This document shows, piece by piece, positions 10,368 to 57,984 of a DNA stretch of 64,000 nt. Source of the DNA: a virus. Its lineage: Duplodnaviria; Caudoviricetes. The first letter of the stretch is position 1. Each line of letters starts with the position of its first letter. The DNA is taken from the IMG/VR virus record IMGVR_UViG_3300031555_002578; one strand, 5' to 3'. The position numbers were made by a program, and so were the translations under genes. The notes beneath the pieces are model-generated. The model was not told where the DNA came from, did not search any database, and worked only from the letters and a program-made list of their open reading frames with translations.

Positions 10368-10449
10368 TGGAGAAAGAACGACTTGAACGCTCAACTTGGC
10401 AACATATAATCTTCCAAACGCCATGTTTTACCAGTTAAACTACTTCCCC
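10368..10449 (-). tRNA. tRNA-Pro(TGG)-like with about 10-nt insertion in the anticodon loop
   Basis: GGGGAAG/TTTCTCC acceptor, GTTT/AAAC D-stem, TGGCG/TGCCA stem enclosing the 17-nt loop TTTGGAAGATTATATGT, GAGCG-TTCAAGT-CGTTC T-arm. Confidence 0.75.
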
Positions 10450-10550
10450 ATATTGGGCAGATTCTACTGCCCAAAGACTACAGAAAGGAACTACTAGATG
10501 AAAAACAAGAGATTTTACCTAGTATTTTATCGGGTCATCACTCCGACAAA

Positions 10551-10722
10551 GGCAAGATGCATGGAATTGAACCATTCTTAGTGTTTGTGGGCAACCATGT
10601 TTTCTTCAAAATATTGAGCCTACCCTAAAGAAAAGAAGGTTCACACCTCTCTTTCTTAATGGTAGATAAATAATTTAAATACTATTGATTCACTAAGAGC
10701 CTACCGTACAAGGCACATTTGC
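10551..10722 (-). ncRNA. tRNA-capped RNA A (D-arm, T-arm, about 107-nt cargo in place of the anticodon loop)
   Basis: GCAAATG/CAT(C)TTGC acceptor, GCCT/AGGC D-stem, TCTTAGTG/CACTAAGA helix, ATGG-TTCAATT-CCAT T-arm, internal GTGA-tetraloop hairpin. Confidence 0.65.
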
Positions 10723-10933
10723 TTAGTTTATGCCAACCAATCCTCACAGACATAAACATGACCACCTTCTATACACTGTGGTCTTCCCCATCCGTGTTTC
10801 CAAAAAAGAATATAAATGACATTTCCATACAGAAACATCGTATCACCTCAACACATGACGGAATTGAAGTGTTGAGATTTTCAACTGTGGCTAACAGTTG
10901 TTGCATAGATGCCGACAAAACATCTGTGCGTAA

Positions 10934-11006
10934 AGTCGGTAACGAGGGTCGAACTCGCAATCCCCAGAGTGGAAGTCTGGTGTGTTAACCATTACACTAT
11001 ACCGAC
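10934..11006 (-). tRNA. tRNA-Gly(TCC)
   Basis: Full cloverleaf: GTCGGTA/TACCGAC acceptor, CCAGA-CTTCCAC-TCTGG anticodon arm, GTTCGAC T-loop; CCA not encoded. Confidence 0.92.
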
Positions 11007-11274
11007 TTAGAGATAGCGGAGAGAACAAAACCAACACTGTCCTCTCCAAGAATCAATACAAATGATAAGAGGTTAGGTTATTAAAAATAGAAACCGTAAT
11101 AACCTATTAAGGAATTTAAAATTTTAGATTAACAATTAGACTTTGGGCTTACACTGTGCTGACCAGTGTGGATAGTAACCGTACTCAGCCCATGTTACTG
11201 ACGGGGCAGATACCGTCAGTATAAAATAAAAGGATTGAAACAAGAAAGTTAATTAGGCAACACTTTCTGTTTAA

Positions 11275-11357
11275 GGGGCAGTCCTTGAATCGAACAAAGG
11301 TTAAGCCATATATACATTCGTGGTAGTTGTGGTGGAAATGTATACTTTCTTCTGCCC
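11275..11357 (-). ncRNA. tRNA-capped RNA B (no D-arm)
   Basis: GGGCAG/CTGCCC acceptor, TATACATT/AATGTATA helix with 18-nt C/A-rich loop, CTTTG-TTCGATT-CAAGG T-arm. Confidence 0.65.
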
Positions 11358-11441
11358 ATAATGTGATAATCTTTTACACCAAAGACTATCACAAACATTT
11401 TAGAGGAACTACAATGAATTTCATTTAGAATCCGTTGTATA

Positions 11442-11603
11442 GGCATAGTGAAGGAATCGAACCTTCTTAATAGGATAAACACTAAAACGAGGTTTTTATT
11501 TCTAAAGGAATGATATGTACAAAATGCTAAATCATAAAGGAAAGATGATTTTATTCAGTGTGAGTAATAGTGATTTATGCATTTATCCTACTCCATTCTA
11601 TGC
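11442..11603 (-). ncRNA. tRNA-capped RNA C (no D-arm, about 100-nt cargo)
   Basis: GCATAG/CTATGC acceptor, TAGGATAAA/TTTATCCTA helix, GAAGG-TTCGATT-CCTTC T-arm. Confidence 0.7.
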
Positions 11604-11721
11604 ATATTATATAGAATAGGCTGAAAGATTAATTGCCGTTGTAATATATTTGCAGATACATTACGAATCCAACAACCTATTCTATATGGAAGGGGTACAA
11701 TCATGAAATGACTTCCGATGA

Positions 11722-11865
11722 TGAGAAGTTGGGGAATCGAACCCCAAATAAAACAAATTTTCACGATGTTTGCCTACAATGTGGAGTACATTATCCAGAA
11801 TCAGATTAACGAGGATGTACTTAGACGGGTATTGCAGATTGTTTTTATTTTCCTACATACTTCTC
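11722..11865 (-). ncRNA. tRNA-capped RNA D (no D-arm, structured cargo)
   Basis: GAGAAGT/ACTTCTC-A acceptor, AATAAAAACAA/TTGTTTTATT helix, TGGGG-TTCGATT-CCCCA T-arm, inner AGTACAT/ATGTACT helix. Confidence 0.7.
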
Positions 11866-11878
11866 ATATTATATAAGT

Positions 11879-12339
11879 TACCCACCGTTTATCAGCCTTG
11901 CAGATGCTTACGGACAATATCATTACTCCAAACTGTAACTCAAGGATTTTGTAAAACGTTTTTCTTTATCGGGACTATAAGAAACCAACATCATCATAAA
12001 TTGAGTACATACTATATTCCAAATTAAATCATTAAACAATCTTTTAATAGAATATAAGTCCCTTCTTTGCACTTTTAACTTTATTATTTAGAACTGAACT
12101 TTGAGCATTGAACTTTAATTCTTTAAACCTTGAACATTGAACTTTACAGTGCATTAGAATCCGTTTCTATAACGGGAATATAATTTCATCTTGTAAAATA
12201 TGTAATATGTTTTTAAGAATAATGCCTTAACAGGGCAGTTCTTGATAATATCGGATTTTATTTATCTTTTTACATTGGTCTACTTTCCGATTAAAAGACA
12301 AATGAATGATAGTTAAAAGTTTCCGATAAACGATGGATA
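11879..12339 (-). ncRNA. About 460-nt structured RNA with heptamer repeats (ARRPOF-like, from recollection)
   Basis: 15-bp terminal helix TATCCATCGTTTATC/GATAAACGGTGGGTA with G-U pairs, GGGACT/AGTCCC and CCTTG/CAAGG helices, central AAAGTTC repeats; no ORF. Confidence 0.7.
12065..12145 (-). repeat. About 11 imperfect 7-nt tandem repeats (consensus AAAGTTC)
   Basis: AAAGTTC AATGTTC AAGGTTT AAAGAATT AAAGTTC AATGCTC AAAGTTC AGTTCT AAATAAT AAAGTTA AAAGTGC AAAG. Confidence 0.85.
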
Positions 12340-12363
12340 TTTTTATTTAGTTAGAAACACTTA

Positions 12364-13017
12364 TCAATAAGTAAATTCGATTTCTGTCAGAGAATTGCTC
12401 ACAGACAGAGCAGAATCAATTTCAACGAGGAAATCATTGATTTTTGTTTCCAGTTCTCTAATTTTATCAACGATTTTAATTTCATCAATAAAATCATAAG
12501 AATTCTGTTCAATGTATTCTTTTTTAGCCAGAGAAGCATTTTCGCCTTTCTTAGCATCTTCATTAGAACCATACATTTCTACAATGTATTTTTCTGCTTT
12601 TCTTTCCAGTTCATCACCATTTCTCATAGTGATAGTATTCTGTTCTTTATGATACTGTTTTTTCAGTTCTGCCAGAAGGTACTGGTCATACTCAACGCCA
12701 TGATTTTTCATCTCAATGGCTTCTGCAACAGTACATTCAATATCATTGATTTTTACCATTGTAACTGCATTGGACAGAACCAGTGCTTTTTTCATGGCAT
12801 TTCTTCTTTTGATTAGAGAAGTTGCTCTGTCATAATCACCTTGCATTTTTGCTCTGTAATCTGTCAGAGTAATGCCAGAAATCTTCATATTAGAATGTTT
12901 GTTTGCAATACAGTATTTACCTGTATCGATTGCATCAATGATTCTTTTATCCATTGTTTTCAGTTCCGCTAAACATTTGTGTACGGACATTCTTTCAGTT
13001 GTAGCCATAATTAACAT
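12364..13017 (-). CDS. Coiled-coil protein, DIP1984/DUF6847 (septicolysin-annotated)-like
   Basis: M(S)VHKCLAELK.MDKRI..LI.RR..MK.A...SNA.T.V....TVAEAI..EID.ALS.SN..T.IE. Probable start at 13008 after AGGAG. Confidence 0.75.
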   Translation of the reverse strand: MLIMATTERMSVHKCLAELKTMDKRIIDAIDTGKYCIANKHSNMKISGITLTDYRAKMQGDYDRATSLIKRRNAMKKALVLSNAVTMVKINDIECTVAEAIEMKNHGVEYDQYLLAELKKQYHKEQNTITMRNGDELERKAEKYIVEMYGSNEDAKKGENASLAKKEYIEQNSYDFIDEIKIVDKIRELETKINDFLVEIDSALSVSNSLTEIEFTY

Positions 13018-13051
13018 CTCCTTTTAAATTTTGATTTTTGAATTTTAATGA

Positions 13052-13126
13052 AAAATCGTACTGGGAATCGAACCCAGTGTTCCTGCTGTGAAAAGAGCAG
13101 AGCCTTTACCTCTTGGCTAACGATTA
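13052..13126 (-). tRNA. tRNA-Glu-like with 8-nt anticodon loop (CT-TTTC-AC)
   Basis: GCC-AAGAGGTAAA-GGC D-arm, CTGCT-CTTTTCAC-AGCAG anticodon arm, CTGGG-TTCGATT-CCCAG T-arm, 6-bp acceptor AATCGT/ACGATT. Confidence 0.7.
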
Positions 13127-13129
13127 CTT

Positions 13130-13757
13130 TGCCATCGTCATGGCTATCTCAGTTCCCACACTGAGATATTTTACAGGCATAAGTCTATCATTTGAGTGAT
13201 AGTTATGTATGTTGTTGTAAACAGATTATTCAGTACCTTCAACTGTGGTTACATGACTATGTATGAACCAGAATCTAAAAACCAACAACCAGAAATCGTT
13301 TCTACATTTAAGGTGACAGCCTATATAATATACTTCGATTTCCATTTTCGCTTTCACCTCTGTCACGATGAAAACTGAACGACTGTAATAATGTTAATAT
13401 CTTGAATCTCAAATAGGCAGAAAAAATACAAGATATTTAGATTACAGTATGATAGTTCAATAAAAGAGAATAGCATATATTGCACTATCGTTGTTTGTAC
13501 CAACCATCCACACAGATACAAACTTGTCCATCTTCCATAATTATGGACTTCCCACATTGTTAAAGTACGCTTAATCGGTTTTGACTTGGCTGAAAACAAT
13601 TCAGAACGATAAGCCAGAATCTAATGTGTGCTTGTGGTATAAGTATGACACATCAGATGTTGTGCAATTAAAACCACACAAACTTCATTGCACTTGTCTT
13701 ACGCATTTATGATGTTATTTACAACAGAGCAATGGGATTATAAGACATTCCACCCAA
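13130..13757 (-). ncRNA. About 600-nt multi-helix RNA candidate (ROOL/GOLLD size class)
   Basis: Long-range TGTTGTAAA/TTTACAACA pairing (13718-13726 with 13213-13221), many nested helices, no credible ORF, flanked by tRNAs. Confidence 0.55.
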
Positions 13758-13761
13758 GTAG

Positions 13762-13855
13762 CGGCAACGGAGGGATTTGAACCCCCATGTCGGATGCAAA
13801 GCCGACACAACTGATTTCAAGTCAGTGCCGTTATAACCAATTTCGGTACGTTGCC
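13762..13855 (-). tRNA. tRNA-Ser(TGA)
   Basis: GGCAACG/CGTTGCC-G acceptor, ACTGA-CTTGAAA-TCAGT anticodon arm, long variable arm. Confidence 0.93.
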
Positions 13856-13865
13856 ATTATAAATT

Positions 13866-13933
13866 TGGAGAACTGTGGATTTGAACCACTCTACCCCGTA
13901 AAGGGTGTGCTAACCGTTACACTAACGCTCTCC
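13866..13933 (-). tRNA. Aberrant tRNA with shortened anticodon arm (TAC in the loop)
   Basis: GGAGAGC/GTTCTCC acceptor, GTGT/GCAC D-stem, ACCC-TTTACG-GGGT mini-arm, GTGG-TTCAAAT-CCAC T-arm. Confidence 0.65.
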
Positions 13934-14071
13934 AGATTGTGACTGATTTCTCAGTCACGATACATAGCAACTCTATAACCCTTTATGAACCTAGAAAGGA
14001 ACGTGTAGATATCAATTTAAACCAATTTGTTTACCAGACAAATTTTCGACCAGTATTAAATTGATATCTGA

Positions 14072-14153
14072 TTGGGAAGGAAGGATTTGAACCTTCACAC
14101 ATGTAACCATGCTAGGGTGCTACCCTATGCGTCTGCCATTTCGCCACTTCCCT
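14072..14153 (-). tRNA. tRNA-Leu-type body with collapsed 3-5-nt anticodon loop
   Basis: GCG-AAATGGCAGA-CGC D-arm, TAGGG-TAGCA-CCCTA anticodon arm, CATG/CATG variable arm, GAAGG-TTCAAAT-CCTTC T-arm. Confidence 0.75.
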
Positions 14154-14195
14154 AGATTGTGGCTGAAAATATCAACCACATGTCCTAAGACTAAA

Positions 14196-14278
14196 TCGGG
14201 CTAACGGGAGTTGAACCCGTACTGCTCAAAGCAAATGGATTTTAAGTCCATCGTGTCTGCCTGTTCCACCATAGCCCG
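14196..14278 (-). tRNA. tRNA-Leu(TAA)
   Basis: CGGGCTA/TAGCCCG-A acceptor, ATGGA-CTTAAAA-TCCAT anticodon arm, long variable arm. Confidence 0.93.
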
Positions 14279-14285
14279 TTATTGC

Positions 14286-14429
14286 ATGATGATTTACTAA
14301 TCTAACTTCCCGTAAAAATGAATGCTTTTGTATGTAAAAAACAAAAATCACATTTTAGATGAAAAGTTATGTATTATGTTTAAAAATTTTGAAAGACGTT
14401 TTGCAGAAGTTTAATCAGCAAATCATCAT
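14286..14429 (-). ncRNA. Rod-shaped RNA candidate between two tRNAs
   Basis: ATGATGATTTGCTGAT/ATTAGTAAATCATCAT (16 bp, G-U pairs on the minus strand) plus AACTTC/GAAGTT. Confidence 0.55.
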
Positions 14430-14435
14430 ACTAAA

Positions 14436-14509
14436 TGGGTCTTGAAGGACTTGAACCTTCGACCGACCGCTTATGAGGCGGTTGCTCTGACCATCTAAGC
14501 TAAAGACCC
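14436..14509 (-). tRNA. tRNA with CAT anticodon (Ile2-like or Met)
   Basis: GGGTCTT/AAGACCC-A acceptor, ACCGC-CTCATAA-GCGGT anticodon arm; lacks initiator features. Confidence 0.92.
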
Positions 14510-56864: not shown

Positions 56865-57984
56865 AGTTTTACTTCCTTCCTTCTGTGTCCTTGTTTTTAG
56901 TTTCTATATACATACTATCACAACGAAAATGCTGTGTCAATATGTTTTTTTCAAATTTCCATCGGAAACTTGTAAAAGCCTACAAAAACCATCTGCTTTT
57001 ATAGGCTTTAGCAATCATCCGATTTATTCCCAAAACAGAATACAGTCTTTTTCTGCATCCATCACATCATCAGTTCTGATAATGCGTTCTAAATCAGATA
57101 AATAGATTTCAAGGAAAGTACCATAATCACTTTCCATTCCTAAGTAAGTGTCATGTTTTTCCTGTAAATCATCTGTATATTTAACAGTGTTCCATGCCCT
57201 TTTAACTGTGAAATTGAAAAGTCTAGGCAATGGACTAGATTTAGACACTACAAAAAAAGAATATCTTTTCCCTGTCATTTCATGTGGTACTTCCTCTGTT
57301 GTATCATCATCATACATTCCTTCATAATAATCATTATCAACTGGATATGTTTCCCAAAATCCATCATCCATACAAATCCCACCAAAACCCTCTGGATAGC
57401 GTTCTGTCAAGTCTGGAATATAAGTCATGATTCATTCCCCTTCCTCTGTGCATTTGATTATGTCAACTATGATTTACTCTGATAGTAAATCGACAAAAGG
57501 GAACAAGCGTTTCCCTGTTCCCCTTTAGCAATTCGCCTATCTGTTATGGTCTGATAATTAAATTTGTATAAATTGCATAAAAATCAATATTTTCTGTAAC
57601 TTCAAAAGTTTCTTTTCCACCATATTCATCGTATGTTACAATATAATTTTTCCCATTTTCATGATAGATTACAATTCTGCATCCGTTGAACATTGTCTTG
57701 TCAAACATCCAGTTTTTTTCTGGTTCTTTCAGCATTTTTTCTACTGCATTTTCAATAGCAATTCTCCATTTTTTCGCTAATTGCCATTCTTTGCGAAATT
57801 CATTGATTCTTTTTTCCTCTGCTATATCTTTTTTTGTTTTTTTCTGTCTGCCTAACCAATAAAGTTCACTACAAGTTCCCATAATCATTCCCCTTCCATT
57901 TTTTTGTTCATGCTCTGCGGACTTGTGACCGCCATCGGTAGCATTAAAGCGGGACTTTTTGTGTCCCACTCCACTCTGCTTTTA

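Follow-up and report, generated by a model that had tools for sequence, protein, structure and literature searches.

Bacteriophage T4 carries in its tRNA cluster the gene of a small stable RNA, species 1 RNA (rnaC), whose role is still unknown (PMC3014915). Lak megaphages contain 'enigmatic introns' in tRNAs, and one of these introns may contain a tRNA of its own (Devoto 2019; PMC6784885); introns that 'could encode another tRNA' are described for jumbo phages (PMC13037316). Here we analyze four RNA elements, named A to D, which lie on the minus strand of a 64-kb stretch of phage DNA (IMG/VR record IMGVR_UViG_3300031555_002578; hereafter the window, to which all positions refer), within an island of tRNA genes. 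We find that these elements are genuine, that they derive from tRNAs, and that they belong to a neglected kind of RNA which keeps the acceptor and T-arm module but has no usable anticodon arm. An earlier note on this DNA, made from its letters, had not recognized them as a described class. This has to be corrected: in the fold of T4 rnaC, a canonical T-arm with the loop UUCGAAU adjoins the 3' end, the 5' and 3' ends are paired, and about 100 nt of hairpins lie in between. Because it shares the plan of A-D, the class is not undescribed, only unexplained, and in the case of T4 the puzzle is 50 years old. The neighbor of rnaC, rnaD, has a fold without such a plan.

In the minimum free energy (MFE) folds of all four elements, an acceptor helix is combined with a T-arm, made of a 4- to 5-bp T-stem and a 7-nt TTCRATT loop, which directly abuts the 3' strand; this strand pairs with a 5' strand located 83 to 172 nt upstream. 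The earlier note had placed the four elements correctly, in coordinates as well as in strand, and the canonical T-arm and acceptor closure that it described are present in every fold, far beyond chance. Its proposal of tRNA-derived units that keep the acceptor/T-arm module without a usable anticodon arm is likewise supported by the folds: a canonical anticodon arm, with 5 bp in the stem and 7 nt, including U33, in the loop, is absent from all four, whose loops measure 16 to 107 nt. The nucleotide directly following the discriminator is U in A-D (4/4), as it is in 5/7 of the called tRNAs of the island. Pair 3-70 is A-U in A and C, and G-C in B and D. The absence of G3-U70, together with negative results of the ARAGORN tmRNA (transfer-messenger RNA) search and of Rfam, agrees with the earlier statement that these elements are not tmRNAs.

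Element A (10551..10722, minus strand, 172 nt; MFE fold, z = -3.1) begins with an acceptor of 8 bp that contains one bulge in the MFE fold (10722-10715 with 10560-10552), followed by a true D-arm at 10714-10699 and by a closing helix of 8 bp (10698-10691 with 10583-10576) around 107 nt. Its T-arm, at 10575-10561, has a 4-bp T-stem and the loop TTCAATT, and the discriminator is a C at 10551, then T. Element B (11275..11357, minus strand, 83 nt; MFE fold, regular expression and shuffle test) has an acceptor of 6 bp (11357-11352 with 11281-11276) plus an A-A mismatch at pair 7, and the linker AGAAAG instead of a D-arm. Its hairpin (11344-11311) has 8 to 10 bp and a CCA-rich loop of 16 to 18 nt, and is followed by the T-arm (11299-11283, TTCGATT) and a discriminator C at 11275. 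Element C (11442..11603, minus strand, 162 nt; MFE and centroid folds) also has a 6-bp acceptor (11603-11598 with 11448-11443) plus an A-A mismatch, and no D-arm; a 5-nt linker, AUGGA, which contains GG, leads to a helix of 13 to 14 bp (11592-11579 / 11482-11469) around about 96 nt without any CCA inside. The T-arm lies at 11466-11450 (TTCGATT) and the discriminator is a C at 11442. Element D (11722..11865, minus strand, 144 nt; MFE fold) has a perfect 7-bp acceptor (11865-11859 / 11729-11723), a hairpin of 5 bp with a 15-nt loop in the place of the D-arm (11857-11833), a stem at 11826-11822 / 11776-11772 (GUCUA/UAGGC), and a T-arm at 11746-11730 with a 5-bp T-stem and the loop TTCGATT, next to a discriminator A at 11722.

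The single plan that had been proposed for all four elements therefore stands for A, B and C, and is weak in D at the closing helix, to which we return below. Three elements had been said to lack a D-stem; this is true of B and C, but D has the hairpin just described. The likeness that had been noticed between B and C holds: common to both are an acceptor of 6 bp with an A-A mismatch at pair 7, a short, purine-rich linker in the place of the D-arm (6 nt in B, 5 nt in C), one long helix, the T-loop UUCGAUU and the discriminator C.

The window is part of a 97-kb IMG/VR phage contig, estimated to be 57% complete. We counted a strict T-arm pattern over this 97-kb genome, with dinucleotide shuffles as control. 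Ten occurrences, which all fall into a stretch of 4.1 kb, were found on the island strand and three others elsewhere, compared with 3.5 per 194 kb in the shuffles, that is, about 0.07 expected in the island. Moreover, B, C and D each present 6 to 7 contiguous Watson-Crick acceptor pairs in the tRNA register. Because the T-arm patterns far exceed those of the shuffles, and the acceptor pairs lie in register, we conclude that the elements are not due to chance.

Comparison with known families, which the earlier note had proposed as a check, gave no meaningful match for A-D with either ARAGORN or Rfam. The tRNA model RF00005 did not match any of them even at E <= 10 in a search of 4.5 kb, and no meaningful match was obtained on the minus strand with the whole of Rfam, at the gathering score or at E <= 10. 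Two hits on element A are at chance level: on the minus strand, a microRNA model reaches 18.7 bits (gathering score 88, E = 7), and on the plus strand, a viral pseudoknot model reaches 23.8 bits (gathering score 65). ARAGORN reported neither tRNA nor tmRNA for A-D, whether introns were allowed or not. As a test of single introns, every segment whose deletion leaves a product of 66 to 100 nt was removed in turn, and the product submitted to ARAGORN. At the normal threshold, no callable tRNA was obtained from A, B or C, and the deletions of D produced only 17 calls, mutually inconsistent.

The cargo of the elements had been thought to be unrelated. This view is too simple for A and D, each of which appears to hold a CCA-ended hairpin nested in a stem-loop. 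The insert of A (10588..10687, minus strand, 100 nt) has a terminal helix with 6/7 pairs, then C, then CCA. It is separated from the closing helix by 3 nt and 4 nt, so that its removal leaves a 7-nt loop (AAU|CAAA), and this placement together with the helix is reproduced in 235 of 200,000 shuffled cargos (p about 0.001). Folded alone, the insert adopts an MFE structure without the terminal helix. Once it is removed, the outer RNA folds as a 72-nt cloverleaf, which ARAGORN calls (anticodon TCA) only at a threshold lowered to 90%; the restored loop, AAUCAAA, has an A at position 33, and the outer part is without a variable loop. The insert of D (11782..11821, minus strand, 40 nt) is a hairpin with 7 Watson-Crick closing pairs, directly followed by CCA. 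It has no discriminator in this register, and an alternative register gives 6 bp, U, then CCA. The 5-bp stem GUCUA/UAGGC encloses it and retains a loop of 5 to 6 nt, and a strict test for such a nested hairpin is passed by 39 of 20,000 shuffles. Without its insert, D looks like a tRNA of class II whose variable arm is long, and ARAGORN makes no call. No nested CCA-ended hairpin was found in B and C. It is the CCA-ended hairpins that tie A and D to the nested inserts of Lak and jumbo phages, and we consider it likely, though not proven, that both belong with such tRNA-shaped inserts.

A 217-aa protein gene is located inside the RNA island, and served to recruit 169 related loci (numbered with an L below) from IMG/VR, metagenomes and genomes, with at most 58% identity to the flanking protein. 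These loci contain 62 unique uncalled elements with acceptor and T-arm, a few of which are possibly spurious long-range closures, against 280 unique ordinary tRNAs. Three families among the uncalled elements could be aligned, and in these the helices are maintained by compensatory changes. In a 'mini' tRNA-like family, the acceptor, D and T stems are paired in 99.3% of cells, with 4 pairs changed on both sides, next to an anticodon arm of 10 to 21 nt that is unalignable. Family b is a tRNA-like RNA with a 6-nt anticodon loop, in which a hairpin of about 52 nt is present in seven relatives and missing in two; both sides have changed in three acceptor pairs and in one pair of the insert's closing helix. 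Family a, of 147 nt, has no D-arm, and its cargo hairpin differs only by GU/AU/GC exchanges. Finally, an unrelated 65-nt element (L122:2808-2872) follows the plan of B and C, with 6 bp, an A-A mismatch at pair 7, a GG linker and a long hairpin. Since helices are kept through compensatory changes, non-decoding tRNA mimics, with or without cargo, are kept by selection in this phage lineage. The support that this lends to A-D is indirect, no more.

Two details concern family b. Presence and absence of its hairpin can be followed by comparing L034:8118-8190 and L122:3136-3208 with L032:7843-7964 and others, and in L118 the insert is strongly diverged while the closing helix is kept.

Six of the uncalled elements in relatives are tRNAs whose anticodon loop is interrupted, namely two Lys-UUU, two Gln-UUG, one Ile-UAU and one UAA (L074:9447-9594, L066:10122-10269, L143:2601-2749, L143:3637-3792, L137:8058-8176 and L062:7320-7464). 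The nested inserts follow position 34, 35 or 36, and their exact limits are the opening base of a 7-bp helix on one side and N-CCA on the other; they consist of a tRNA-Asn (GUU), an amber-suppressor tRNA, or tRNA-like hairpins of 48 to 85 nt. Removing them restores a perfect cloverleaf in all six cases. In two relatives, one and the same Gln tRNA has received inserts that differ and whose sites are one position apart, which indicates that the insertions were independent. RNA ligase is encoded in 2/3 of the searchable relatives with nested tRNAs; in one 99%-complete genome among these relatives, none of the three families sought in the RNA ligase search was found.

The question arises as to how RNAs such as A-D are produced, and what they do. 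The acceptor/T-arm minihelix is the module read by RNase P, RNase Z and the CCA-adding enzyme, and it protects tRNA ends; a U after the discriminator is preferred by the RNase Z of Bacillota. We lean towards a scheme in which A-D are excised from the island transcript by RNase P and RNase Z and receive a CCA, the minihelix then stabilizing an RNA that displays hairpins. The island would be transcribed into one or a few precursors, which RNase P would cleave at the acceptor 5' ends and RNase Z after the discriminator, a position with no encoded CCA and with U next in all four elements. Addition of CCA would then yield discrete stable RNAs of about 83 to 172 nt, as for T4 species 1 RNA. In these RNAs the D/anticodon half would be replaced by hairpins, displayed where the anticodon arm was. 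The hairpins most likely entered as inserts into the anticodon region, a hot spot of insertion seen in the relatives, and those of A and D would belong to the CCA-ended, 'tRNA-shaped' inserts. That A-D are transcribed and stable, where they are cut and what their cargo does is what we infer here, the enzyme steps from what RNase P, RNase Z and the CCA-adding enzyme are known to recognize.

As to the cargo itself, our guess is that it provides mimics or sponges for tRNA-binding host factors, or that the elements are carriers of structured hairpins. The earlier note had seen in it a battery of small RNAs. When duplex energies were computed between A-D and 253 regions of the phage where translation putatively starts, pairing stayed at the level of shuffled controls, which gives this idea no support as far as the phage's own start regions are concerned. 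Two strong duplex values were discarded as spurious, as they involve opposite-strand open reading frames (ORFs) that overlap A and D themselves.

The RNA island in which the elements are found extends on the minus strand from 10368 to 14509, and comprises 6 to 8 tRNAs called by ARAGORN and Rfam, several of which are odd. The tRNA at 10368-10449 (minus strand), with the anticodon UGG, is lengthened by 10 nt after position 37 and has an acceptor of the alanine type, with G3-U70 and A73; it scores 46.9 bits with Rfam and is called by ARAGORN only if introns are allowed. Another, at 13053-13125 (minus strand), has an 8-nt anticodon loop (CUUUUCAC), and in the class-II tRNA at 14072-14153 (minus strand) the anticodon arm is able to close as a 6-bp stem with a 3-nt loop. 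An uncalled tRNA-like element of 68 nt at 13868-13935 (minus strand) possesses a good acceptor, D-arm and T-arm (loop UUCAAAU), and an anticodon arm reduced to a 3- to 4-bp stem with a 5-nt loop. None of the stand-alone tRNAs of the window encodes its CCA.

Spacers of the island are also of interest. A recurrent leader is found on the minus strand at 14154-14180, 13936-13960, 11358-11392 and 11604-11690, directly before several tRNA-like units; it consists of a hairpin, often GUG...CAC, plus 5 nt (AAUCU, AUUAU or AAUAU). The sequence UAUAUAAUAU precedes both element C and element D. Directly upstream of D lies an 89-nt block (11869-11955, minus strand), which has no Rfam match; in over 30 relatives, a block with 73 to 78% identity to it lies some 400 nt downstream from the homologous gene. 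Farther upstream, directly after the 217-aa gene, the region 12250-12337 (minus strand) gives a full-length match to RAGATH-27, just below the gathering score (72.5 bits vs 76.1), and is conserved in part among relatives. A promoter scan of the island was uninformative, with the same count as in shuffles.

The 97-kb contig encodes GroEL, an RlaP-type nucleotidyltransferase and an integrase. Its closest cultured relatives are a Clostridioides phage and Bacillus phages of about 153 to 166 kb, with 52 to 55% protein identity, and relatives of the flanking 217-aa gene occur in metagenome-assembled genomes (MAGs) and genomes of Blautia, Flavonifractor, Pseudobutyrivibrio and Oscillospiraceae, as well as in one MAG labelled Phocaeicola. 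Those in the isolate assembly of Flavonifractor sp. An82 and in Clostridia MAGs such as Blautia are prophage-like. Given these cultured relatives and these carriers, the host is most likely a gut member of the Clostridia, and the lineage is one of phages of gut Clostridia of about 150 to 170 kb. The genetic code is standard, the longest ORFs being unaltered under codes 4 or 15. Recoding of a stop codon, which would require a tRNA with the anticodon UCA, was considered and rejected: the longest ORFs are the same under both codes, and no need for a UGA reader is seen. A type-P5 twister ribozyme is present at 57917-57980 (minus strand), with 55.6 bits, above the gathering score.

Several observations weigh against the scheme of excised, hairpin-displaying RNAs. 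In element D, the proposed closing helix is weak, made of A/U pairs only, and unused by the MFE fold, and the fold z-scores of the four elements are modest (-1.9 to -3.1). The criteria for nested hairpins in A and D were set after the pattern had been seen in relatives, and a looser criterion is passed by 13 to 24% of shuffles; stricter tests were adopted because chance so often satisfies the loose one. In addition, A-D have no homologue among 160 loci searched by blastn with word size 7, and the exact T-arm/acceptor patterns of C and D were unmatched in IMG/VR; a comparison of acceptor stems likewise gave nothing. This orphan status, together with outer loops that are non-canonical in A (A at 33, no variable loop) and in D (5 to 6 nt), with the other damaged-looking tRNAs of the island and with inserts that are present or absent among relatives, is what one would expect if A-D were wrecked tRNA genes of a fast-turnover array, hit by mobile hairpin or CCA-minihelix inserts and now decaying, the top half being intact only because the event is recent. 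We regard such wreckage as unlikely, though it deserves to be kept in mind: useless DNA is quickly deleted from phage genomes, and B, C and D keep 6 to 7 perfect acceptor pairs and perfect T-arms next to D and anticodon arms that are unrecognizable, which is not what uniform decay would leave. Moreover, the anticodon-less analogues of the relatives are under structural selection. Alternatively, the top halves could be punctuation only, that is, RNase P and RNase Z signals that free neighboring spacer RNAs, the interior being irrelevant, as in mitochondrial tRNA punctuation, plant t-elements and mascRNA. The dense one-strand array, with its structured spacers and recurrent leader hairpins, would fit this scenario, and so would the conserved 89-nt block directly upstream of D and the RAGATH-27-like element upstream of that block. 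A minimal signal, however, has no need of internal hairpins of 18 to 107 nt, and those of families a and b keep their pairing through changes, which makes a pure punctuation role distinctly improbable in our opinion.

A further scenario is that A-D are intron-containing tRNAs, in which RNase P would cut at the 5' end of the insert, a second cut would fall behind CCA, and ligation of the two halves would give working tRNAs, a route that has been proposed for the nested tRNAs of other phages. It is suggested by the perfect Lys, Gln and Ile cloverleaves that removal of CCA-ended inserts restores in relatives, by the RNA ligase of two of the three searchable relatives with nested tRNAs, and by A itself, which regains a 7-nt loop and an ARAGORN call (anticodon TCA) at the lowered threshold. 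A restored loop, however, is proof of insertion, not of splicing. Neither B nor C possesses a D-arm, an anticodon stem-loop or a nested CCA-ended hairpin, and C does not contain any CCA; D regains a loop of 5 to 6 nt only; and A, B and C did not become callable at the normal threshold after any single deletion. Furthermore, the genome is without sign of needing a UGA reader, and neither RNA ligase (PF09414, PF09511) nor RtcB was found in the 97-kb contig, which covers 57% of the genome. Splicing is conceivable for A alone, doubtful for D, and as an account of the elements we give it little credit. Still less credible, to the point of being nearly negligible, is that they are chance matches, or tRNA 3' fragments of the attP type used by the phage integrase. 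The phage does encode an integrase, and attP cores often copy the T-arm and the 3' acceptor strand, but here each of the T-arms comes with a complementary 5' strand in the tRNA register, four units are packed into 1.3 kb of a tRNA island about 10 kb away from the integrase, and the shuffle tests exclude chance.

Returning to the excised tRNA-derived RNAs, a broader and more tentative proposal can be made, which we hold possible rather than probable: selection may maintain in this lineage a varied collection of non-decoding tRNA mimics, in which the tRNA top half would be a natural scaffold for processing and stability, and the anticodon position a plug-in site for mobile hairpins or CCA-ended minihelices. 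During infection, the products would serve, for instance, as decoys or sponges for defense enzymes that target tRNAs or for other tRNA-binding factors. Phage tRNA clusters are usually read as helpers in codon usage, or as spares against anticodon nucleases. In this lineage, about one sixth of the unique tRNA-shaped genes are unable to decode, and several keep their fold through compensatory changes; such genes suggest that phages also use the tRNA shape for a second purpose, outside translation. This would bring together the species 1 RNA of T4, the tRNA-shaped inserts of megaphages that were called 'enigmatic', and the idea that the tRNA body is a natural RNA scaffold.

How do A-D compare with RNAs that share part of their design? 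In the engineered tRNA scaffold of Ponchon and Dardel, a cargo RNA reportedly takes the place of the anticodon arm, and the tRNA body provides RNase P/RNase Z processing and stability. This scaffold, in contrast, is an artificial construct in which the D-arm is retained; that A-D work likewise is what we infer, and if their cargo is functional, they would be natural, ready-made scaffolds for RNA expression in Gram-positive bacteria. YrlA, a bacterial Y RNA, is an anticodon-less tRNA mimic that is encoded by some phages, with a permuted topology in which the 5' and 3' ends form the Ro-binding stem. A-D differ from it in that they have no Rfam match, and no gene with a TROVE domain was found in the 97-kb contig (57% of the genome). 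B and C resemble the tRNA-like domain of tmRNA, in that an acceptor is followed by a single-stranded linker in the place of the D-arm, a long helix, a short linker, a T-arm and the acceptor 3' strand, but A-D are without G3-U70, tag reading frame and pseudoknots. With the tRNA-shaped inserts of large phages, the hairpins of A and D appear to share a 6- to 7-bp terminal helix ending in (N)CCA and a nested location at the position of the anticodon arm; in contrast, the outer parts of A and D are non-canonical after removal of the insert, and B and C have no insert. The comparison with T4 rnaC goes further. There is no sequence similarity, the terminal helix of the T4 RNA is imperfect, and T4, a phage of E. 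coli and not of Clostridia, has one such RNA where the present island has at least four. Like rnaC, however, A-D lie in a tRNA cluster, close on themselves by pairing of their 5' and 3' ends, have a T-arm by the 3' end, and have hairpins that replace the D-arm and the anticodon arm; if the lineage does maintain a set of tRNA mimics, T4 species 1 RNA would gain a class.

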